DNA of 30,352 bases from Betaproteobacteria bacterium (GTDB taxonomy: Bacteria > Pseudomonadota > Gammaproteobacteria > Burkholderiales > SG8-39): NCBI GenBank assembly GCA_004298295.1, contig SCUH01000269.1, positions 1 to 30,352 of the forward strand, given 5' to 3'. Positions 1-13,192 of the stretch are shown here, piece by piece (the first letter of the stretch is position 1; each line of letters begins with the position of its first letter). The notes beneath the pieces were generated by a model. It made no database searches, was not told the origin of the DNA, and saw nothing but the letters and a program-made list of their open reading frames with translations. The translations under genes were made by a program, and so were the position numbers.

Positions 1-1275
1 GCGGTTGCGCAGCCGCTGCTCGCCGAGGTCCTCGACCGAGGCGTCGACGCCGCTCGCCAGCTGATCGCGCACCGGCGCGGAAACCACCGTCTCGCCGGGA
101 TTCGCCAGTTCGGCCAGGCCGGCCGCGACGTTCACCCCGTCGCCCAGCAGGTTGAAGGTTTCGACGATGACGTCGGCGAGGTGAATTCCGACGCGCAGCG
201 CGAGGGGCGGCGCGGTGGTCTCCGAGTTGAATCGCGCGAGGCTGCGTTGCAGCTCGAAGGCGCACTCGAGCGCATGAACGCCATCCGGAAAATCGGCGAC
301 CAGTTCGCCGCTCTGCAGCTTCGACAGGCTGCGGCCGGCGTTGGACGGAATCGCCTGCGCGTTGGCGTGCGCGAAAAACGCCCGCCAGCGCTGGATGGTG
401 CGTTCCTCGTCGCGCTCCATCATGGCCACGGCATCGAAGGCGACGGCGACGAGAATCGCGCGCCGCTCGCGCCGGGAGCGCACGCCCGTGCATCCAGTCG
501 GTTCGACTGAGGCGATCTCCTGAAACGGCAGTCGTTCGGGACGAGATTCCGCCGCCAGCTGCTCCAGTGCGGCCACGTCGCGCAGCACGAGGGCGCGGCC
601 GGCGCGCTCGAGCAAACCGTTGCGGACCAGACGGGAGAGTTCGCGCGTCACCTCCTCGCGGGACGTGCCCACATGGCTGGCGATCTCCCGATGCGTCGGC
701 GCGCGTTCGATGCGGGACATATTGGCCTGCACGCCCGCAAGCCGGGCGAGGCGCAGCAGCTCGAGCCAGACCCTGGCCTGCACGCGCTGGGCGCCGAGGT
801 CGATCAGGCGATCGGCCAGCTCGCGCACACTACCGCTCAGGCGGCGGAGCACGTGCTCGCGCACCGAGGCGTGATTCGCGAGGATGGCCCGAAACGCCTC
901 CGGCGGCAGCGACGCGAGCAGCGACTCGCGTGCCGCGACAACGTCGGCCATGTGGGTGCGGCCGTCGATGGCGGAATGTTCGCCGAACAATTCCCCAGCC
1001 GGCAGGTCCCGCAATATGATCTGGCGCCCGCGCCCGGCCGCAGCCGAAACGCGCACCATGCCGGCGATCACGAAATGAACGTCGCGATCCTCGCCGTCGC
1101 GCCGGATGACGTACTGGTTGCGCTTATAGCGCGTCCATTTGCACTGATCCGCGATCTCCCTGAGGGTGCGCGCGTCCAGCCCCTTCAGGATAGTGACCCT
1201 TTGCAGGCCGAGCACCGCCGAGGCGCGGATGGCGCGATTCTTGGTTGCGCCGCGGCGCTGCCGTGCGGTTGCCAT
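1..1275 (-). CDS. Crp/Fnr-family regulator (cNMP-binding domain + HTH) fused to a degenerate class III adenylate/guanylate cyclase-like domain; 3'-partial, runs off the left edge
   Basis: Manual translation gives a stop-free minus-strand frame from ATG 1275 to position 1 (425 codons), not listed in the ORF track. It contains a cNMP-binding region (VHFVIAGMVRV...GELFGEHSAIDG), a Crp HTH (PTHREIASHVGTSREEVTRELSRL) and cyclase-like motifs (LRVGIHLADV, LLGDGVNVAA, PGETVVS, EDLGEQRLRN). Confidence 0.88.
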   Translation of the reverse strand, partial: MATARQRRGATKNRAIRASAVLGLQRVTILKGLDARTLREIADQCKWTRYKRNQYVIRRDGEDRDVHFVIAGMVRVSAAAGRGRQIILRDLPAGELFGEHSAIDGRTHMADVVAARESLLASLPPEAFRAILANHASVREHVLRRLSGSVRELADRLIDLGAQRVQARVWLELLRLARLAGVQANMSRIERAPTHREIASHVGTSREEVTRELSRLVRNGLLERAGRALVLRDVAALEQLAAESRPERLPFQEIASVEPTGCTGVRSRRERRAILVAVAFDAVAMMERDEERTIQRWRAFFAHANAQAIPSNAGRSLSKLQSGELVADFPDGVHALECAFELQRSLARFNSETTAPPLALRVGIHLADVIVETFNLLGDGVNVAAGLAELANPGETVVSAPVRDQLASGVDASVEDLGEQRLRNR

Positions 1276-1576: not shown

Positions 1577-2671
1577 ATGGCACAAGCGGTTTCGCATGAA
1601 CTTCTGCAGCGAATCCGGGACATCATCGCTGCGGAAACGGGCGTCGACCCTTCGCCCGAGGTCCTTGAGCGGCTGCAGGCCACCCTCGCCACCGCCCCGG
1701 ATCAGGCCGCAGCGACGCCGCCCGCCGCAGAGACCTCGAGCCGCGAAGTCACCGTCCTGCTCGCCGACCTGCGCGGCTTCAGCTCGATCTCCGAAGCCTA
1801 TCCGGTGGCGAAGGTGCTCGAGCTGCTCAACCGCTACCTCGGGCGCATGTGCGAGATCGCGGTGCGCAACGGCGGCACCATCGACAAGTTCATGGGCGAT
1901 TCGATCATGGTGCTGTTCGGCGCCCCGCAGCAGGGCGACGACGACGCACGGCGCGCCGTGACCTGCGCGGCGCAGATGCAGATCGCGATGGACGAGGTCA
2001 ACCGCGAGCACGCCGCGCTCAAGCTGCCGGAGCTCTTCATGGGCATCGGCATCAACACCGGCCGCGTCATGGCGGGGCTCCTCGGCTCCGAGCTGCATTC
2101 GGAGTACACGGTCATCGGCGACGAGGTGAACTTCGCCTCGCGCATCGAGACCTTCAGCCTGCGCGGCCAGGTGCTGGTGAGCGAGAGCACCTTCGAGCTC
2201 TGCCGCGGCTACGTCGCCACGGCCGCGCCGATGGACGTGCACGTCAAGGGCAAGTCCAAACCGGTGCGCCTGCACGAAGTGCTGGCGATCCCGTCCCTCG
2301 GCCTGCAGCTGCCGCGGCAGGAAGTGCGCAAGAGCCCGCGCGTCGAGGTGAGGATCCCGTTCACCTACCAGCCGGTGATCGACAAGATCGTGATGCCGCA
2401 GGTGCGCACCGGCGTGATCCTCGACCTGGGCTATCACGGCATCTTCGCCGAGGTCGAGCCGGGCCTGACGACCCATTCCGACATCCGCCTGGGCCTGGAT
2501 CTTTCGCTCGTCGGCGGCCGCGCCGACGATGTCTACGCCAAGGTGCTCGGCACGCACGCCAACAAGGGCCGCCACATGGCGAGCATGGAATTCACTTCGG
2601 TCAGCGTGCCGGGCAACGCCGCCATCCGGCAGTTCGTGCAGACGCTGATCCAGGGCAGCCCGACGAAGTAG
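1577..2671 (+). CDS. Class III adenylate cyclase with C-terminal PilZ domain
   Basis: Cyclase motifs are TVLLADLRGFS, IDKFMGDSIM, IGINTG and EYTVIGDEVNFASRIE. PilZ motifs are RKSPR (RxxxR) and DLGYHG 27 residues later. ATG 1577 is preferred over the track start at 1166, whose extension overlaps the divergent Crp gene. Confidence 0.88.
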   Translation: MAQAVSHELLQRIRDIIAAETGVDPSPEVLERLQATLATAPDQAAATPPAAETSSREVTVLLADLRGFSSISEAYPVAKVLELLNRYLGRMCEIAVRNGGTIDKFMGDSIMVLFGAPQQGDDDARRAVTCAAQMQIAMDEVNREHAALKLPELFMGIGINTGRVMAGLLGSELHSEYTVIGDEVNFASRIETFSLRGQVLVSESTFELCRGYVATAAPMDVHVKGKSKPVRLHEVLAIPSLGLQLPRQEVRKSPRVEVRIPFTYQPVIDKIVMPQVRTGVILDLGYHGIFAEVEPGLTTHSDIRLGLDLSLVGGRADDVYAKVLGTHANKGRHMASMEFTSVSVPGNAAIRQFVQTLIQGSPTK

Positions 2672-2904: not shown

Positions 2905-3414
2905 TCAATCGTCCCGTCGCCGGCTGCGCAACATCTCAAGCCGGTGGAGCGTCTCGATGTCGGAGCGGTCGATCTGCCGGCCGGTGCCGGATTTTAGCGC
3001 GATCAGATCCGGTACCGAGATCGCGGAAACATCGAAATCTTCCACCTTGAACGTCACCCGCCGCTCGTAGGCCGGCTCGAATGGCACTGCGGGCTTGACC
3101 AGCACATCGAGCGAGGGTCCATGGCCCTCGGCAGGTCGAAGCTGGAATGCAAGCATGTGCTTGTCCCGGATCCAGCTCTCCACTGTCGCCGCATCACAAA
3201 ATTGCTCCATCGTCACAAGCGGATTCGCCGGCTTGAGCTTCAATGGCCGGATTGCCGCGAGGAAGCGCTGCAGATTCTCCGCGTCCAGAGCGAGCATGAT
3301 GTCCACGTCCATGGTCATGCGCTCCGCGCCATGCAGATTGGCTGCGACGCCACCTACGACAAGGTAGCGCACCCGCTCCTGTGCCAGTAGCCGAAAAAGA
3401 TCGACGAAGAACAT
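2905..3414 (-). CDS. Nucleotidyltransferase-fold protein (DUF6036 / AbiEii-like)
   Basis: Has the GGVAANLHGAERMTMDVD motif (GG-x-A...R-x-T-x-D-x-D) and C-terminal LIALK...GR-x-x-D-x-x-D. An SD-like GGGAGG lies inside the rmuC 3' end. Confidence 0.8.
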   Translation of the reverse strand: MFFVDLFRLLAQERVRYLVVGGVAANLHGAERMTMDVDIMLALDAENLQRFLAAIRPLKLKPANPLVTMEQFCDAATVESWIRDKHMLAFQLRPAEGHGPSLDVLVKPAVPFEPAYERRVTFKVEDFDVSAISVPDLIALKSGTGRQIDRSDIETLHRLEMLRSRRRDD

Positions 3415-3417
3415 CCG

Positions 3418-4542
3418 CTAACCTCCCGGCTTGCGCTCGGCCTCCAGCCGCGCCACGTGCGGCGCGGCGGTCGGCTCCTCGATCTCGGCCGCCTCGATCC
3501 TCTGGAACTGCTGGCTGATCTTGTCGCCGGTGATCTGGATCTTTTCGGCGTCCTCGTGCGCCTGGCGGATGTGGTCGGCGAGCTTGCGGAGGCGCTCGTC
3601 GAAACGGCCGAACTCCACCGCGAGCCGCGCCAGCGCCTCCTTGATGACGTGGATCTGCTTGCGCGTCTCGACGTCCTTCAGCACGGCGCGCGCGGTGTTG
3701 AGCACCGCCATCAGCGTCGTCGGCGAGACGATCCAGACGCGCCGCGCCATCGCGTAGTCGACCACCTCGTAGTGGTAGGCGTGGATTTCGGCAAACACCG
3801 CTTCCGCCGGGACGAACATCACCGCGCCGTCCGAGGTTTCGTTGGCGATGATGTATTTCTTCGCGATGTCGTCGACGTGTTTCCTCACGTCCAGCCGGAA
3901 CTGCTTCTGCGCCAGCGAGCGATCGGCGTCGTTCGCCTCGCGCTCGAACATGCGGTTGTAGTTCTCCAGCGGAAATTTCGAATCGACGCAGACCAGGCCC
4001 GTGGGCGCGGGAAGCTTCAGCACGCAGTCGGCGCGCATGCCGTTGGACAGCGTGTACTGCATCTCGAAGGCGGCGGTGGGCAGGGTGTTGCGCACCAGCG
4101 CCTCGAGCTGCACTTCGCCGAAGGTGCCGCGCGTCTTCTTGTCGCCGAGCAGCTCCTGCAGCGACACCACGCTGCCGGTGAGGATCTCGATCTTCTTCTG
4201 CGCCTCGTCGATGGTCGCCAGCCGCTGCATGACGTTGACGAACGTGTCGTTGGTCTTGCGGAAACCCTCGTCGAGGCGCTCGTTGACGCGATGCGAGATC
4301 TGGTCGAGGCGGCTCGCCAGGCTCTCGCCGATCGAGAGCTCCAGCCGGTGCAGCGTGTCACGGGTGCGGTTCAATTCGTCCGACAGGCGCGCGGCCAGGC
4401 GGTCCGACTGCTGCGCGAGACCGCCGTGCAGGTCGAGCAGCATGTGGCGGTGCTTGTCTTCGAGGCTGCGGTGCGTGCGCAGCACCAGCCAGATCGCGAG
4501 ACCCAGGACGACCAGAGCGATGACGATCGCGGATTCAGCCAT
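3418..4542 (-). CDS. rmuC: DNA recombination protein RmuC
   Basis: N-terminal TM segment, coiled coil, and motifs KTRGTFGEVQLE, VDSKFPLENY and AVMFVPAEAVFAEI. Confidence 0.93.
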   Translation of the reverse strand: MAESAIVIALVVLGLAIWLVLRTHRSLEDKHRHMLLDLHGGLAQQSDRLAARLSDELNRTRDTLHRLELSIGESLASRLDQISHRVNERLDEGFRKTNDTFVNVMQRLATIDEAQKKIEILTGSVVSLQELLGDKKTRGTFGEVQLEALVRNTLPTAAFEMQYTLSNGMRADCVLKLPAPTGLVCVDSKFPLENYNRMFEREANDADRSLAQKQFRLDVRKHVDDIAKKYIIANETSDGAVMFVPAEAVFAEIHAYHYEVVDYAMARRVWIVSPTTLMAVLNTARAVLKDVETRKQIHVIKEALARLAVEFGRFDERLRKLADHIRQAHEDAEKIQITGDKISQQFQRIEAAEIEEPTAAPHVARLEAERKPGG

Positions 4543-4662: not shown

Positions 4663-4971
4663 ATGCGGGTCGCAGTGAAGCAATCCAGAAGAAGGTTCCT
4701 GATGCTCGGGGAGCCGGCCTCTGCGCAACTGCCCGCCACGGGATTCGCCCGCAGGGCGCGCATCAGCGAGCAATGCCTTGCCGCGCGCGGCATCGTGTGC
4801 CGCACCTGCGGCGGGCACTGCGAGCCACACGCGATCGGCTTCCGGCTGCTGCCGGCCGGGCGATCCTTTCCCCTCATCGACGACACGCGCTGCAACGCCT
4901 GCGGCGAGTGCGTGCGCGTCTGCCCGGCGCAAGCCGTTTCGCTGCACCTGATCGAGACCGCGCCGGCATGA
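4663..4971 (+). CDS. napF: Ferredoxin-type protein NapF, shortened (start uncertain: 4663 ATG or 4675 GTG)
   Basis: SRRRFL N-terminus and Cys motifs CLAARGIVCRTCGGHC and CNACGECVRVCP. It is the first gene of the nap operon. Confidence 0.75.
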   Translation: MRVAVKQSRRRFLMLGEPASAQLPATGFARRARISEQCLAARGIVCRTCGGHCEPHAIGFRLLPAGRSFPLIDDTRCNACGECVRVCPAQAVSLHLIETAPA

Positions 4972-5216
4972 ACATCTCCGGCATCGTGTTGCGCGCAAGT
5001 CCGGAGAACGCCGCCGGAGTGCGCGCCTCGGTCGCCGCGCTGCCCGGGGTCGAAGTGCATGCCGCGACCCATGACGGCCGGCTGGTGCTCACCCTCGAGG
5101 ACGCCGGCACCGCGAGCGCGGCGGACACCTTCGTGAAACTGCACGACATCCAGGGCGTGATGTCGGTGTCGATGATCTACCAGTATTCGGATGATTCGGG
5201 AATCCAGGAGGCTTGA
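4968..5216 (+). CDS. napD: NapD chaperone
   Basis: 82 aa (MNISGIVL...LPGVEVHA...GRLVLTLE...[10 protein letters not shown]), ATGA overlap with napF, directly before napA. Confidence 0.9.
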
Positions 5217-5218
5217 CC

Positions 5219-7708
5219 ATGAATCTCAGCAGACGCGATTTCATCAAGGCCAACGCCGCCACCGCGGCAGCCGCGGCAGCCGGCGTGACGCTGCCGGGCA
5301 CCGGGGTGCTCGCGCAGCCCAAGGATGACATCCGCTGGGACAAGGCGCCGTGCCGTTTCTGCGGCACCGGCTGCAGCGTGCTGGTAGGCACCAAGGACGG
5401 CCGCGTGGTCGCGACGCAGGGCGATCCGGATGCACCGGTCAACAAGGGTCTCAACTGCATCAAGGGCTACTTTCTCTCCAAGATCATGTACGGCGAGGAC
5501 CGCCTCAAGCAGCCGCTCCTGCGCATGAAGAACGGCAAATACGACAAGGCGGGCGAATTCACGCCGGTCAGCTGGAAGCAGGCCTTTGACCTCATGGCCG
5601 AGAAGTGGAAGGTGGCGCTCAAGGCCGACGGTCCTGCGGCGGTCGGCATGTTCGGCTCGGGCCAGTGGACCATCTGGGAGGGCTACGCCGCGGCGAAGCT
5701 CTACAAGGCGGGCTTCCGCTCCAACAACCTCGACCCGAACGCGCGCCACTGCATGGCGAGCGCGGTGGCGGGCTTCATGCGCACGTTCGGCATCGACGAA
5801 CCGATGGGCTGCTACGACGATCTCGAGCACGCCGACGCCTTCGTGCTCTGGGGCTCGAACATGGCCGAGATGCATCCCGTGCTGTGGTCGCGGCTGACCG
5901 ACCGCCGCCTCACCAACCCGAAGGTGAGAGTCGTCGTGCTCTCGACCTTCGAGCATCGCTCGTTCGAGCTGGCCGACCTGCCGATCATCTTCACGCCGCA
6001 GACCGACCTCGCGATCCTCAACTACATCGCGAACCACATCATCCAGTCGGGCAAGGTGAACCAGGACTTCGTCAAGAAGCACGTCAATTTCGCCGCCGGC
6101 GCGACGGACATCGGCTACGGCCTGCGGCCGGCGCACGCACTGGAGAAAGACGCCAAGGACCTCAAGGACACCAACGCCTCGAAACCGATCAGCTTCGACG
6201 AATACAGGAAGTTCGTCTCCGAGTACACCGCCGAAAAGGTTGCCAAGCTTTCGGGCGTTTCGGTCAAGGACTTGAAAACACTGGCAGAAATTTACGCTGA
6301 CCCCAAATTGAAGGTGGTGTCGTACTGGACGATGGGCTTCAACCAGCACACGCGCGGCACGTGGGTGAACAACCTCGTCTACAACGTGCACCTGCTGACC
6401 GGGAAGATTTCGGAGCCGGGCAACGGCCCGTTCTCGCTCACCGGGCAGCCTTCGGCCTGCGGCACGGCGCGCGAAGTGGGAACCTTTTCGCACCGCCTGC
6501 CCGCCGACATGGTGGTCACGAATCCGAAACACCGCGAGCTCACCGAAAAGCTGTGGCAGCTGCCCGAGGGCACGCTGCCCGACAAGATCGGTCTGCACGC
6601 GGTGGCGCAATCGCGCGCGCTGAAGGACGGCAAGCTCAAGTGCTACTGGACTTCGACCACCAACAACATGCAGGCCGGGCCGAACATCAACGGCGAGATC
6701 CTGCCGGGATGGCGCAACCCGGCGACCTTCGTGGTCGTGTCGGATGCCTATCCGACGGTGAGCGCGCTCGCCGCCGACCTGATCCTGCCCTCGGCCATGT
6801 GGGTGGAAAAGGAAGGCGCCTACGGCAACGCCGAGCGGCGCACCCAGTTCTGGCGCCAGATGGTCAAGGCGCCCGGCGAGTCGAAGTCCGACCTCTGGCA
6901 GTACCTCGAGTTCGCCAAGCGCTTCAAGGTCGAGGAGGTCTGGCCCGCCGAGCTGATCGCGAAGAAGCCCGCGTACAAGGGCAAGACGCTGTACGACGTC
7001 CTCTTTGCCAACGGCGTCGTCGACAGATTCAAGCTCAAGGAGCTGCCGAAAGATGGCTACATCAGCGAGGAGACGAAGGACTTCGGCTTCTATCCGCAGA
7101 AGGGCCTCTGGGAAGAGTACCGGCAGTTCGGCAGCGGCAAGGCGCATGACCTGGCCGAGTTCGATACGTATCACAAGGTGCGCGGTCTGCGCTGGCCGGT
7201 GGTCGACGGCAAGGAAACGCTCTGGCGCTTCAGGGAAGGCTACGACCCGTACGTGAAGAAGGGCGAGGGCTTGCGTTTCTACGGCAAGCCCGACGGCAAG
7301 GCCGTGATCTTCGCCTTGCCCTACCAGCCCGCGGCCGAGTCGCCCGACAAGGAGTACGACCTGTGGCTGTGCACCGGGCGCGTGCTGGAGCACTGGCACA
7401 CGGGTTCGATGACGCGACGCGTACCCGAGCTGTACCGCGCCTTCCCCGACGCGGTCGTGTTCATGCATCCCAACGACGCCCAGAAGCGCGGACTGCAGCG
7501 CGGTGTGGAAGCCAAGCTCGTTTCGCGGCGCGGCGAGATGATCGCGCGCATCGAGACGCGCGGCCGCAACAAGGTGCCCGAGGGCCTCGTGTTCGTGCCG
7601 TTCTTCGATGCCGGGCGGCTGGTCAACAAGCTCACGCTGGATGCCACCTGCCCGATCTCCCGTGAAACCGATTTCAAGAAATGCGCGGTGAGAATCACGA
7701 GGGTGTAG
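5219..7708 (+). CDS. napA: Periplasmic nitrate reductase catalytic subunit
   Basis: Tat signal SRRDFIK, [4Fe-4S] motif CRFCGTGC...C, Mo ligand [21 protein letters not shown] and C-terminal DFKKCAV. SD AGGAG precedes ATG 5219. Confidence 0.98.
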
Positions 7709-8437
7709 ATGGCCGCTCGCCGACAGATCCTGCAGGGGATGGCAGGCGCCGCGGGCTGCGCGGCACTCGCCGGCCTCGGCCTGGGACTGTATGCGCAGCA
7801 GACGCGCGCCTTGCCCGTGCGGGCGCTGCGCCCGCCGGGCGCGCAGCCCGAGGAAAAGTTTCTCGGCGCCTGCCTGCGCTGCGGCCTGTGCGTGCGCGCC
7901 TGTCCCTACAAGACGCTGCGCCTGGCGGAACTGGGCGACGGCGTGGTGAGCGGCACACCGTGGTTCACGGCGCGCAGGATCCCCTGCGAAATGTGCCCCG
8001 ACATTCCCTGCGTCAAGGCCTGTCCGAGCGGCGCGCTCGAGCCGTCGCTGCAAGACATCGACCGCGCGCGCATGGGGCTCGCCGTGATCGTCGACCAGGA
8101 AAACTGCCTCAATTACCAGGGGCTGCGCTGCGACGTCTGCTACCGGGTCTGCCCGCTGATCGGCAAGGCGATCACGCTCGAGCTGCGCCACAACGAGCGA
8201 ACCGGCAAGCACGCGATGTTCATCCCGACGGTGAATTCGAATCACTGCACCGGCTGCGGCAAGTGCGAGCGCGCCTGTGTGCTCGAGGAAGCCGCGATCA
8301 AGGTGCTGCCGCTGAAGCAGGCCAAGGGCGAACTGGGCCGGCACTACCGCCTCGGCTGGAAGGAAAAGGAAAAGGCCGGCCGGGCGCTCGGACCCGAAGC
8401 GCTCGAATTTCCGATCCGCAGGCCTGAACAGCGATGA
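7709..8437 (+). CDS. napG: Ferredoxin-type protein NapG
   Basis: LRPPGA motif and four Cys cluster motifs ([27 protein letters not shown]...[19 protein letters not shown]). Confidence 0.95.
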
Positions 8438-9309
8438 GCCGCGCCGAAGCCGCGCTGCACCCGCCGCACGCGCCCGCCGCCGCCGCAGTCGCCGCCAAGG
8501 GCCTGTTGCGCGCGCACCGGTGGCTCCTGCTGCGGCGCACGTCGCAGTTCGCGGCGCTCGCGCTGTTCCTCGCCGGGCCGCTCGCCGGGATCTGGATCGT
8601 GAAGGGCAATCTCGCCTCGAGCCTCACGCTCGAAGTGCTCCCCTTGAGCGATCCCTACGCGGTGCTGCAGGGCCTCGCGGCAGGCCACCTCATGGCGGCG
8701 AGCGCGCTCACCGGGGCCGCGATCATGGCGGTGTTCTACGCCATCGCCGGCGGCCGCGCGTACTGCGCGTGGGTCTGCCCTGTGAATGTCGTCACCGACA
8801 CCGCAGCGTGGCTGCGCCGCAGGCTCGGACTGCGTCCGGACATTTCGCTGCCGCGCGCCACGCGCCAGTGGCTGCTCGGCGCGACCCTTGCGCTGGCCGC
8901 CGCCACCGGCGCGATCGTCTGGGAATGGGTCAATCCGGTCTCGATGCTGCATCGCGGGCTGATCTTCGGCTTCGGCCTCGCCTGGGCGGTGGTGCTCGCG
9001 GTTTTCGTCCTCGACCTGCTCGTGTCGGCGCGCGCCTGGTGCGGGCATCTCTGCCCGATGGGCGCGTTCTATGCGCTCCTCGGCAGCGGCGCCCTGCTGC
9101 GCGTGTCGGCGCGCTCGTCCTCGCGCTGCGACGATTGCCTCGACTGCTATCGCGCCTGCCCCGAACCGCAGGTGATCCAGCCCGCGCTCAAGGGCTTGGC
9201 GAGCCCCGTCATCGGCTCGGCCGCGTGCACCAACTGCGGCCGCTGCATCGACGTCTGCAGCCAGGACGTGTTCCGCTTCGCCATCCGCTTCGACCAGAGA
9301 AGGGACTGA
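8434..9309 (+). CDS. napH: Quinol dehydrogenase membrane subunit NapH
   Basis: TM helices, CAWVCP and CGHLCP motifs, and two C-terminal CxxCxxCxxxC motifs. Confidence 0.95.
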
Positions 9310-9311
9310 TC

Positions 9312-9788
9312 ATGAACGCTTTCCGCATTGTGCTTTGTCTCGCCGCCGCGGTTGTGCTCGCCGCCGCAGGCGCCGTGCGCGCGCAGACGCAGCCGGCGGT
9401 CGGCAAGGTCGACCTCAAGACCGGCGACGTGGTGCCGATCGAGGCCACCTCGCGCGCCGACTCGTTTCGCAACGCGCGCGACCGCGAGCCCTATGCGCGC
9501 GATTTCGTGCAGCAGCCGCCGCTGATCCCGCACACCGTCAAGGGCTACAACATCACGGCCAACTTCAACAAGTGCATGGATTGCCACGCCTGGTCGCGCA
9601 CGCCGGAGTCCGGCGCCACCAAGGTGAGCCAGTCGCACTTCAAGGACCGCGATGGCCGCGAGCTCTCCAACATTTCGCCGCGGCGCTACTTCTGCCTGCA
9701 GTGCCACGTCTCTCAGGTCGAGGCCCCGCCGCTGGTCAACAACACCTTCAAGCCGCTGCCGTCGATGAAGCAGGCGCCCGCGAAGTAG
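9312..9788 (+). CDS. napB: Diheme cytochrome c NapB
   Basis: Signal peptide from ATG 9312, QQPPLIPH, and heme motifs CMDCH and CLQCH. Confidence 0.95.
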
Positions 9789-9798
9789 GGACCGCACC

Positions 9799-10389
9799 AT
9801 GCAAACACCACGCAGCGGCCTCGCCGCGCGCATCCGCAGCCTCGGGCCCTGGACCGCGCTCCTGATCTTCGCCGCGGGAATCGTCTTCTGGGGCGGCTTC
9901 AACTGGACGCTCGAGCTCACCAATACCGAGGCCTTCTGCACCGCGTGCCACGAGATGAAGGTGAACGTCTTCAAGGAGTACCAGAACACGATGCACTACT
10001 CCAACCGCACCGGCGTGCGCGCCACCTGCCCGGACTGCCACGTGCCGCGCGAGTGGGTGCACAAGGTGGCGCGCAAGATCCGCGCCAGCAACGAAGTGTT
10101 CCACTGGGCGCTCGGCTCGATCGACACGCCGGAGAAGTTCAACGCCGTGCGCCGCAGGCTGGCGCAACTCGAATGGGCGCGCATGAAGGCGAACGATTCG
10201 CACGAGTGCCGCAACTGCCACGCCTACGACTACATGGACTACTCGGAGCAGGGACGGCGCGCCGTGGCCCAGCATACGAAGGGCTTTGCCGAGAAGAAAA
10301 CCTGCATCGACTGCCACAAGGGCGTGGCGCACTCGCTGCCGCCCATGGAGCAGAACATCGGCGCGCCCAGGGTGGCGCAGGCCGACTGA
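9799..10389 (+). CDS. napC: Tetraheme membrane cytochrome c NapC (NapC/NirT family)
   Basis: N-terminal TM segment and four CxxCH motifs (CTACH, CPDCH, CRNCH, CIDCH). Confidence 0.95.
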
Positions 10390-10476: not shown

Positions 10477-11988
10477 TCACATGCGATACGCCGCCTCGCC
10501 GTGCGAAGTGACGTCGAGCCCTTCGCGCTCGGCTTCCTCGGTCACGCGCAGGCCGATGGTCCAGTCGACCAGCTTGAAGGCGACGAAGGCCACCACGCCC
10601 GACCACAACACCGTCACGCCCACGGCCTTGGCCTGAGTCAGCACCTGCGCTGCGATGCTCTCGAAGCCGGGCTTCATCTCGAACCAGTTGTTGGGGAAGC
10701 CCGGCCCGCCGAGCGACGGGTCGTTGAATACGCCGGTGAGCAGCGCGCCCAGAATTCCGCCGATGGCGTGCACGCCGAACACGTCGAGCGAGTCATCCAC
10801 CTTGAGCAGGTGCTTCAGGCCGTTCACGCCCCAGAGGCATACCAGACCCGCGGCGGTTCCGATCACGAACGCACCCGGTATGCCCACGTTGCCCGCGGCG
10901 GGAGTGATCGCCACCAGCCCCGCGACGGCGCCCGAGGCTGCACCGAGCATCGAAGGCTTGCCCTTGAAGACCGCCTCGCCCAGTATCCAGGAGAGAACCG
11001 CGCAGGCCGTCGCGAGGTAGGTGTTCATGAACGCGAGCCCGGCGGTGCCGTTCGCTTCCAGGGCGGAACCGGCGTTGAATCCGAACCAGCCGGTCCAGAG
11101 CAAGGCGGCGCCGATCATCGTCATGGTCAGGTTGTGCGGCATCAGCGCTTCCTTGCCGTAGCCGATGCGCTTGCCGACGACGTAGGCGCCCACGAGTCCG
11201 GCGATGCCGGCGTTGATGTGCACCACCGTGCCGCCCGCAAAGTCGAGCGCCCCCCATTGCCAGAGCAGGCCCGCCTTGCCGTTCATCTCGTCCACCACCT
11301 TGGCGCTCGTATAGGCGTCGGGACCCATCCAGAACCACACCATGTGCGCGATCGGCGCGTAGCTGAAGGTGAACCACAGCACGATGAACGCGATCACTGC
11401 CGAGAACTTGATCCGCTCGGCGAACGCGCCCAGGATCAGGCAGCAGGTGATCGCGGCGAAGGTTGCCTGGAACGCGACGAACACCAGCTCGTACAACGGC
11501 GTGTTCCTGCTGAAGGTCGCGGCCATGGAGAATTCGCCTTTGGCGGAATCGAACGTTCCCTTGAGGAAGAGGCGATCGAAGCCGCCGAAGTAGGCGTTGC
11601 CCTCGGTGAAGGCGAGGCTGTAGCCGTAGATGCACCACAGCACCGTCACCAGCGAGAACACGACGAAGACCTGCATCAGCATGGAAAGCGCGTTCTTCGA
11701 GCGCACCATGCCGCCGTAGAACAGCGCCAGCGCGGGCACGCTCATCATGAGCACGAGCGCGGTCGAGGTGAGCATCCAGGCAACGTCGCCCTTGTTCGGC
11801 GTCGGCGCAGGTTTCGCTTCCGCAGGCTTGGGCGCTTCGGCAGGCGCCGCAGCGGTTGCTGGTGCAGCGGCCGCCGGCGCTGCCGCGGCCGGCTTGTCGC
11901 CGGCCGCCGGCGCCTTGCCCTGCGCCCAGCCGGTCCCCGCGAGCGCCACTGCCGTCGCGAGCAGGATCAATGCAAGGAATCGCTTCAT
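10477..11988 (-). CDS. amtB: Ammonium transporter AmtB
   Basis: Signal peptide, Ala/Pro-rich linker, and motifs DFAGGTVVHINAG, WTGWFGFNAGS and DDSLDVFGVH (twin His present). Confidence 0.97.
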   Translation of the reverse strand: MKRFLALILLATAVALAGTGWAQGKAPAAGDKPAAAAPAAAAPATAAAPAEAPKPAEAKPAPTPNKGDVAWMLTSTALVLMMSVPALALFYGGMVRSKNALSMLMQVFVVFSLVTVLWCIYGYSLAFTEGNAYFGGFDRLFLKGTFDSAKGEFSMAATFSRNTPLYELVFVAFQATFAAITCCLILGAFAERIKFSAVIAFIVLWFTFSYAPIAHMVWFWMGPDAYTSAKVVDEMNGKAGLLWQWGALDFAGGTVVHINAGIAGLVGAYVVGKRIGYGKEALMPHNLTMTMIGAALLWTGWFGFNAGSALEANGTAGLAFMNTYLATACAVLSWILGEAVFKGKPSMLGAASGAVAGLVAITPAAGNVGIPGAFVIGTAAGLVCLWGVNGLKHLLKVDDSLDVFGVHAIGGILGALLTGVFNDPSLGGPGFPNNWFEMKPGFESIAAQVLTQAKAVGVTVLWSGVVAFVAFKLVDWTIGLRVTEEAEREGLDVTSHGEAAYRM

Positions 11989-11997
11989 TTCGTTCTC

Positions 11998-13192
<1,195 letters not shown>

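Follow-up and report, generated by a model that had tools for sequence, protein, structure and literature searches.

A Crp-like regulator fused to a degenerate class III cyclase domain in Burkholderiales

As a rule, a Crp regulator and a class III cyclase are two distinct proteins that communicate through a diffusible messenger. The cAMP-responsive Crp regulators, such as M. tuberculosis CRP (Rv3676), C. glutamicum GlxR, S. meliloti Clr and E. coli CRP, consist of a domain that binds cyclic nucleotide monophosphates (cNMP-binding domain, CNB), a long dimerisation helix and a winged helix-turn-helix (HTH). Soluble cyclases of about 590-600 aa instead combine a class III cyclase homology domain (CHD) with a TolB-like domain and tetratricopeptide repeats (TPRs); a solved CHD relative is 3mr7 of Silicibacter pomeroyi. 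Here we analysed 30,352 nucleotides of a Betaproteobacteria bacterium (contig SCUH01000269.1 of assembly GCA_004298295.1, hereafter the window), at the left edge of which a minus-strand gene encodes both kinds of protein in one reading frame. The fusion shares CNB, dimerisation helix and HTH with the Crp regulators, but it has about 600 extra C-terminal residues (CHD, TolB-like, TPR), their Arg-Ser/Thr pair is His-Met in the window, and no CRP-type sites were found for it. With the soluble cyclases it has the domain order, the CHD fold and a downstream EamA gene in common. However, these cyclases lack a DNA-binding part and retain a full catalytic set (D, K-x-x-G-D, D, N and R), whereas in the window protein D, D, D and R are missing and a Crp module forms the N-terminus.

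Two further groups of proteins are comparable. M. tuberculosis Rv0386-type proteins are built of a CHD, an ATPase, TPRs and a LuxR domain, and Rv0386 is an active cyclase. Like the fusion, they and the HilA/EilA-type regulators link a DNA-binding domain to a large TPR-containing regulatory region, but they use LuxR or OmpR DNA-binding folds in another domain order and have no CNB. In NCBIfam, residues 464-820 of an orthologue of the fusion align weakly to HilA/EilA (2e-10, far below the curated cut-off). The degenerate halves C1 and C2 of mammalian adenylyl cyclases (ACs) likewise keep the cyclase fold for dimerisation and regulation after partial catalytic loss. In that case one site stays active, whereas both residue sets are lost in a homodimer of the window protein and no active site could form. 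All parts of the fusion come from known families, and pseudo-cyclase domains are known in principle; full-text literature searches returned no description of a Crp-class III cyclase fusion or of its family.

The fused gene and its catalytic residues

An earlier reading of the window by a model, which had only the letters and a list of open reading frames (ORFs) at hand (the original prediction), described a stop-free minus-strand frame of 425 codons that leaves the window. Codons and contig edge agree with this description: the frame 1..1275 (-) starts with an ATG, has a TTG one codon further 5' and exits at base 1. Since base 1 is also the first base of the contig (C354; the assembly comprises 361 contigs and is 81% complete), the gene was cut by assembly and not by mutation. 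The GC content at codon positions 1/2/3 is 0.75/0.49/0.85 in this frame, which is typical for real genes of the window. The following features were located (residue numbers are those of the window protein):

1..1275, minus: 5' half of the fusion gene, 425 of about 850 codons; open frame, with the 3' part beyond the contig end
871..1131, minus: CNB, aa 49-135 (Pfam PF00027, 2.2e-16)
940-987, minus: phosphate-binding cassette F97-G-E-H-S-A-I-D-G-R106-T-H108-M-A-D-V; FGE and R106 kept
556..774, minus: Crp-type winged HTH, aa 168-240 (Pfam PF13545, HTH_Crp_2, 3.5e-13; also PF00325)
643-663, minus: recognition helix S-R-E-E-V-T-R; R-E-x-x-x-R kept across orthologues
472..555, minus: variable linker, aa 241-268, the old gene boundary (27% mean pairwise identity; model pLDDT, the predicted local distance difference test, below 50)
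1..471, minus: CHD, aa 269-425, last strand missing, catalytically degenerate (from the 3mr7 match of an orthologue and the catalytic columns)
442-444, minus: V278 at the first metal Asp (usual residue D in 149/177)
307-309, minus: G323 at the second metal Asp, motif K-x-x-G-D read as K319-L-Q-S-G323-E324, with Gly at the Asp site and Glu adjacent
151-153, minus: N375 at the substrate-specifying Asp (usual residue D, 128)
Residue N382, minus: transition-state Asn, kept (usual residue N in 158/177)
118-120, minus: G386 at the transition-state Arg (usual residue R in 164/177)

Pfam recognised cNMP_binding and HTH_Crp_2 in the window protein, in line with the predicted Crp part. Guanylate_cyc matched aa 336-419 below threshold only (E 0.013), which is why most annotations of the fusion name cNMP binding alone. 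Full-length orthologues comprise 849-858 aa, with G010 and G011 (same genus) at 72% identity. After the CHD they continue with a TolB-like alpha/beta domain and then a TPR array, as had been guessed for the missing C-terminus. The closest full-length relative is P0160, which lies on a 34-kb contig with the upstream gene order of the window (cyclase-PilZ, small ORF, nucleotidyltransferase-like gene, rmuC). The first three modules of the window protein are 91% identical to P0160, and the last two lie beyond the contig end.

Catalytic residues were mapped on two bases, a gap-free HMMER alignment of the orthologue P0003 to the solved CHD 3mr7 (E 5e-17) and query-anchored alignments to 176 homologous domains. 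A class III active site spans a dimer: two Asp come from one chain, and Lys, Asp, Asn and Arg come from the other. In the window the substrate Lys K319 is kept, whereas, of the features that mark an active class III cyclase, both metal Asp are lost and the Asn/Arg pair and the pair of Lys with Asp/Thr are incomplete. The original prediction had read Val for the first metal Asp, Asn at the substrate-specifying position and Gly for the transition-state Arg; each residue was verified at its codon, and the Asp and Arg losses hold in the 176-domain alignment. For K-L-Q-S-G-E it had left open whether the Asp was lost or replaced by a shifted Glu. The loss stands (G323, with a Glu beside it); since close relatives carry E or Q at position 324, E324 is not a conserved stand-in for the lost metal Asp. 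Members of both residue sets are lost, and therefore no site is left in a homodimer or with the protein as either half of a heterodimer. Judged by these residues, the CHD of the window's lineage is apparently unable to make cNMP any more.

Distribution, catalytic states and origin of the fusion

The fusion of Crp and cyclase parts that had been proposed is real. A search of about 5.8 billion proteins revealed more than 120 clusters that match P0003 in length and domain layout, at 69-100% identity to it. Where named, their sources are metagenome-assembled genomes (MAGs) labelled Betaproteobacteria or Burkholderiales, and the species genomes that carry the fusion are soil MAGs. Within the window's bacterial family, about 30 of 317 species genomes, in 6 of 34 genera, gave matches extending over both the HTH and the cyclase part. 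The fused proteins are annotated mostly as 'cyclic nucleotide-binding domain-containing protein' or as 'adenylate cyclase', and in some entries as 'TolB-like protein/class 3 adenylate cyclase/CRP-like cAMP-binding protein'; the domains have thus been recognised by automatic annotation.

Catalytic states were counted over 121 sequences from uncultured soil Burkholderiales, namely 120 full-length orthologues and the window. D, G-D, N and R are kept in 32 of them (intact state), 29 have E and A-D-G together with R (half-changed state), and 60 have lost at least one essential residue (dead state). Nearly all fused orthologues carry Asn in place of the substrate Asp. The notion of a pseudo-cyclase thus applies to the window's lineage; it fails for the family as a whole, about a quarter of the orthologues keeping D/GD/N/R. 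On the orthologue tree the window falls inside a 19-row all-dead clade with a Shimodaira-Hasegawa-like approximate likelihood ratio test (SH-aLRT) value of 99, and well-supported branches force at least 6 changes of dead state. Rooting with stand-alone paralogues was also tried; the outgroup branches were long (0.8-2.2), and the resulting basal dead clades were not trusted.

The mean pairwise identity of the CHD is 74% over the 120 orthologues and 82% within the window's all-dead clade. This is on par with the other domains (70-88%), and the catalytic columns are among the most variable ones. The linker, by comparison, reaches 27% among orthologues versus 70-80% in the domains. Such domain-wide conservation combined with variable catalytic columns is the signature expected of a CHD under purifying selection as a pseudoenzyme, probably kept for a non-catalytic role.

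Two loci carry the parts of the fusion as split genes. In G091, a 269-aa crp-like gene ends in an in-frame TGA and is followed by a 607-aa CHD-TolB-TPR gene with an intact site and by a convergent EamA gene; the reading frame runs straight from the crp-like gene through the TGA into the cyclase gene. On contig L042, a gene with a Crp-type HTH ends 36 nt before the gene of P0007, after which EamA follows. Fused genes also have convergent EamA and DUF6065 genes downstream. P0007, a 592-aa cyclase and the nearest stand-alone paralogue, keeps D, KSLGD, D, N and R and is 58% identical to the C-terminal 581 aa of P0160, while the Crp part of the fusion shares 63% identity with a Crp of 245 aa that stands alone in a sister genus. 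In addition, the variable linker coincides with the stop codon or intergenic stretch of the split forms. These arrangements show that the fusion gene arose from adjacent genes for a crp-like regulator and a CHD-TolB-like-TPR sensor cyclase, probably by loss of the stop codon between them. At least from an arrangement like that of G091, one lost stop codon would suffice.

Downstream of the gene for this 245-aa Crp, the sister genus has genes for a single-domain response regulator and then hemA (L009 1219-3513, G017:C114). Because hemA also closes the cluster downstream of the fusion gene in L026, this Crp may be the positional counterpart of the fusion's Crp part. Two irregular loci were observed as well. 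The fusion gene of P0175 is immediately preceded by four short ORFs that match cNMP-binding and TPR domains (L025 5333-7904; tblastn, 62% identity to fusion residues 583-842) and look like a decayed tandem duplicate. In L044 (G265:C14:42800-46800), the frame changes inside the cyclase domain near 1597 and the span is only about 2.25 kb; either this copy is frameshifted or shortened, or the assembly is wrong at this place.

The main interest of the family is that split, fused-intact and fused-dead forms exist side by side in one bacterial family. The split forms provide strong genomic evidence that a Crp-like regulator and a sensor cyclase work together, and the whole set offers a graded natural series for how pseudoenzymes arise and why a dead cyclase fold is retained. 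For dead members of the fusion family, the label 'adenylate cyclase' is wrong.

Crp module, dimer model and competing explanations

The best solved relatives of the Crp module are M. tuberculosis CRP, GlxR and Clr (E about 1e-18). The S-R-E-E-V-T-R stretch, earlier taken for the CRP recognition pattern, proved to be just that: it aligns with CSRETVGR of CRP-type proteins. The window protein would bind DNA.

The cNMP pocket is less clear. FGE occurs in 113 of the 121 sequences, and R106 is nearly invariant and lies two residues upstream of the canonical phosphate-binding Arg position. That position, 108, is His in the window and is followed by Met at 109; it is Arg in 95/121 orthologues and His in 8, all eight of them dead forms. 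In the window alignment, Leu/Ala take the place of the C-helix Thr/Asn that contact adenine. Since the canonical Arg is replaced by His, binding of cNMP by the window's Crp module is uncertain. A cassette shortened by two residues was considered and rejected: the split-form Crp, whose cassette reads E-R-S-A as in E. coli CRP, and an alignment with M. tuberculosis CRP that needs no gaps both show canonical spacing. A link between the death of the cyclase and the disappearance of the canonical Arg was looked for in 6 independent contrasts, which gave no signal (sign test not significant).

To the C-terminal side, an AlphaFold model of P0160 shows the CHD with a pLDDT of about 85-96. Foldseek searches with this CHD returned the active cyclases Ma1120, Rv1900c and 3mr7 as top matches (template modelling score, TM, 0.84-0.91). 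The CNB domain of the same model has low confidence (pLDDT of 27-47), and its alignment in this part comprises close orthologues only. A CHD homodimer model scored 0.71 versus 0.00 for the best control; among proteins solved as one-chain pairs 20 of 30 attained this mark, and among those solved as single chains 1 of 23 did. The modelled interface comprises residues 289-302, 325-334, 378-390 and 431-435, that is, the canonical CHD segments at the rim of the former active site. This gives model support to the proposal in the original prediction that the cyclase fold has been repurposed for dimerisation.

On balance, we think it probable that the fusion is a one-component regulator in which a dead CHD dimer forms the structural link between the TolB-like/TPR sensor and the Crp module. 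The full protein would be a cytoplasmic protein of about 850 residues with CNB, Crp-type HTH, CHD, TolB-like domain and TPR array. Its gene would have formed when the stop codon between the crp-like gene and the sensor cyclase gene was lost. In the window's lineage both metal Asp, the substrate Asp and the transition-state Arg are replaced, and the CHD would be retained by purifying selection as a folded, dimer-forming domain. Through the dead CHD dimer, the state of the C-terminal TolB-like/TPR sensor would reach the Crp module, which would bind DNA as a dimer. The ancestral relay of two genes included a diffusible cNMP; this step would now be dispensable, or would be fed by other cyclases such as the adjacent cyclase-PilZ protein. 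The data establish the gene as real, the identity of its domains, the lost catalytic residues, the conserved fold, the ancestral split arrangement and the distribution within the family; we infer dimerisation in vivo, the signal path, binding to DNA and any continued cNMP binding.

Several observations weigh against this explanation. FGE, the near-invariant R106 and the CNB as best-conserved domain (80%) argue that a ligand is still bound, and the messenger step may not be obsolete. The homodimer may score well because the model has learnt CHD dimers of solved structure. TGTGA-N6-TCACA sites with up to 2 mismatches number 3 in the window versus 5.8 expected, and none is near the gene. Palindromes in the 300 nt upstream of 17 orthologous genes are common to near-identical loci only and provide no evidence of autoregulation. 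Moreover, the long-branch rooting with paralogues places dead clades at the base, and the order of losses is not resolved by the tree. Finally, the C-terminal half of the window's own gene is absent from the assembly, where a search with the C-terminal 450 aa of an orthologue found paralogues of 27-41% identity only.

A more specific form of the one-component reading, which we put forward tentatively, is that fusion short-circuited the relay. The TPR sensor would act directly via the CHD dimer, cNMP would become redundant, and the site for its synthesis would have decayed repeatedly, in separate lineages; in the window's lineage, the canonical cNMP-binding Arg would have decayed too. If true, the family represents a natural series of an enzyme turning into an allosteric linker.

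Alternatively, the pocket of the dead CHD dimer could be a sensor of a ligand (ATP, GTP, cNMP or other) that is bound without turnover, comparable to the forskolin site of mammalian cyclases, and that tunes DNA binding. In favour of this, the window protein retains K319 and N382, almost every fused family member has N375, and the conserved pocket rim lies at the predicted dimer interface. In mammalian AC C1/C2, the degenerate site of the heterodimer is a regulatory site, and degenerate sites of heterodimeric class III cyclases are known for such a role. However, the triphosphate would have been held by the two metal ligands and the Arg, none of which is left, and the residues at the lost sites vary freely among close relatives (SG, GR, GQ, EH, QQ), which looks like relaxed selection and not like a binding site under new selection. 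We therefore regard a ligand sensor as unlikely. The earlier idea of nucleotide sensing is in particular less likely for the canonical mode, because both metal ligands and the Arg are gone.

The dead CHD might also heterodimerise with active CHD-TolB-TPR paralogues and regulate these cyclases by poisoning them or tethering them to DNA, instead of being controlled by its own tail. CHDs work as dimers, the interface segments are conserved, and these genomes contain many CHD paralogues including the CHD-TolB-TPR type, one of them at C333 of the same assembly. No partner is conserved beside the gene, however, the paralogue in the window genome is just 34-41% identical, and the homodimer is predicted confidently. 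We consider this quite improbable.

We give even less credence to a CHD that is still active, via E324 or other non-canonical residues or as a C2-like half of a heterodimer, and feeds its own Crp module. E324 does sit beside the lost Asp in the presence of K319 and N382, and the roughly one quarter of orthologues with a full catalytic set may work in this way. In the window, however, V278 is unable to bind metal, no acid is conserved at position 324, G386 removes the transition-state Arg, and key residues of both class III half-sites are lost.

An artefactual fusion, through a frameshift or a chimeric assembly, or a pseudogene in decay is hardly credible. In its favour, the gene is truncated in the assembly, the G265 copy looks frameshifted and L025 carries a decayed tandem copy. 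Against it, the same 849-aa frame recurs in more than 120 clusters from independent metagenomes and about 30 species genomes, codon-position GC is normal and all domains appear to be under purifying selection. The orthologue set thus contradicts the frameshift or sequencing error that the original prediction had named as its refutation.

Genes around the fusion

The neighbourhood of the fusion gene contains the following features:

1577..2671, plus: class III adenylyl cyclase with C-terminal PilZ, divergent neighbour of the fusion gene (Pfam Guanylate_cyc 1.8e-25, PilZ 9.4e-6)
2702-2908, minus: 68-aa ORF overlapping the next gene
2905-3414, minus: DUF6036 nucleotidyltransferase-like gene
3418-4542, minus: rmuC
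4773-5216, plus: napD
5213-7708, plus: napA, with twin-arginine translocation (TAT) signal
7709-8437, plus: napG-like
8434-9309, plus: napH-like
9799-10389, plus: napC
10477-12336, minus: amtB/glnK
L024 13033-18574, L026 12795-18155 and L025 12790-15069: signalling cluster of orthologous contigs

The divergent cyclase-PilZ neighbour keeps a full catalytic set (D, K-F-M-G-D, T, N, R). In its PilZ domain RxxxR is present (R-K-S-P-R), and D-x-S-x-x-G reads D-L-G-Y-H-G. The protein could couple cyclic di-GMP (c-di-GMP) to cAMP, its binding of c-di-GMP being uncertain. It could also supply cNMP to the fusion protein in trans, but this is a weak argument, because the adjacency is limited to three very close loci. 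A conserved partnership of the two genes was rejected: they adjoin only in the window, in G008 and on contig L024, the cyclase-PilZ gene lies on other contigs in G010, G011 and G005, and it is absent from the flanks of 13 other orthologous loci.

The DUF6036 gene and the overlapping 68-aa ORF are possibly a toxin-antitoxin-like pair, and they are conserved beside cyclase-PilZ in L024. Between rmuC and amtB/glnK, the window carries a periplasmic nitrate reductase operon (4773-10389, plus strand). Since rmuC adjoins amtB directly in L024, the closest syntenic contig, this nap block of roughly 6 kb is an insertion or deletion difference between close relatives. Long minus-strand ORFs within the block (e.g. 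5177-8344) are shadow frames, with a GC content at third codon positions (GC3) of 0.61.

On three orthologous contigs, a conserved signalling cluster lies a few kb downstream of the fusion gene, at a position that is past the contig end in the window. Its products are histidine kinases with dCache/GAF domains, a response regulator of one domain only and a response regulator-PAS-GAF-GGDEF-EAL protein.

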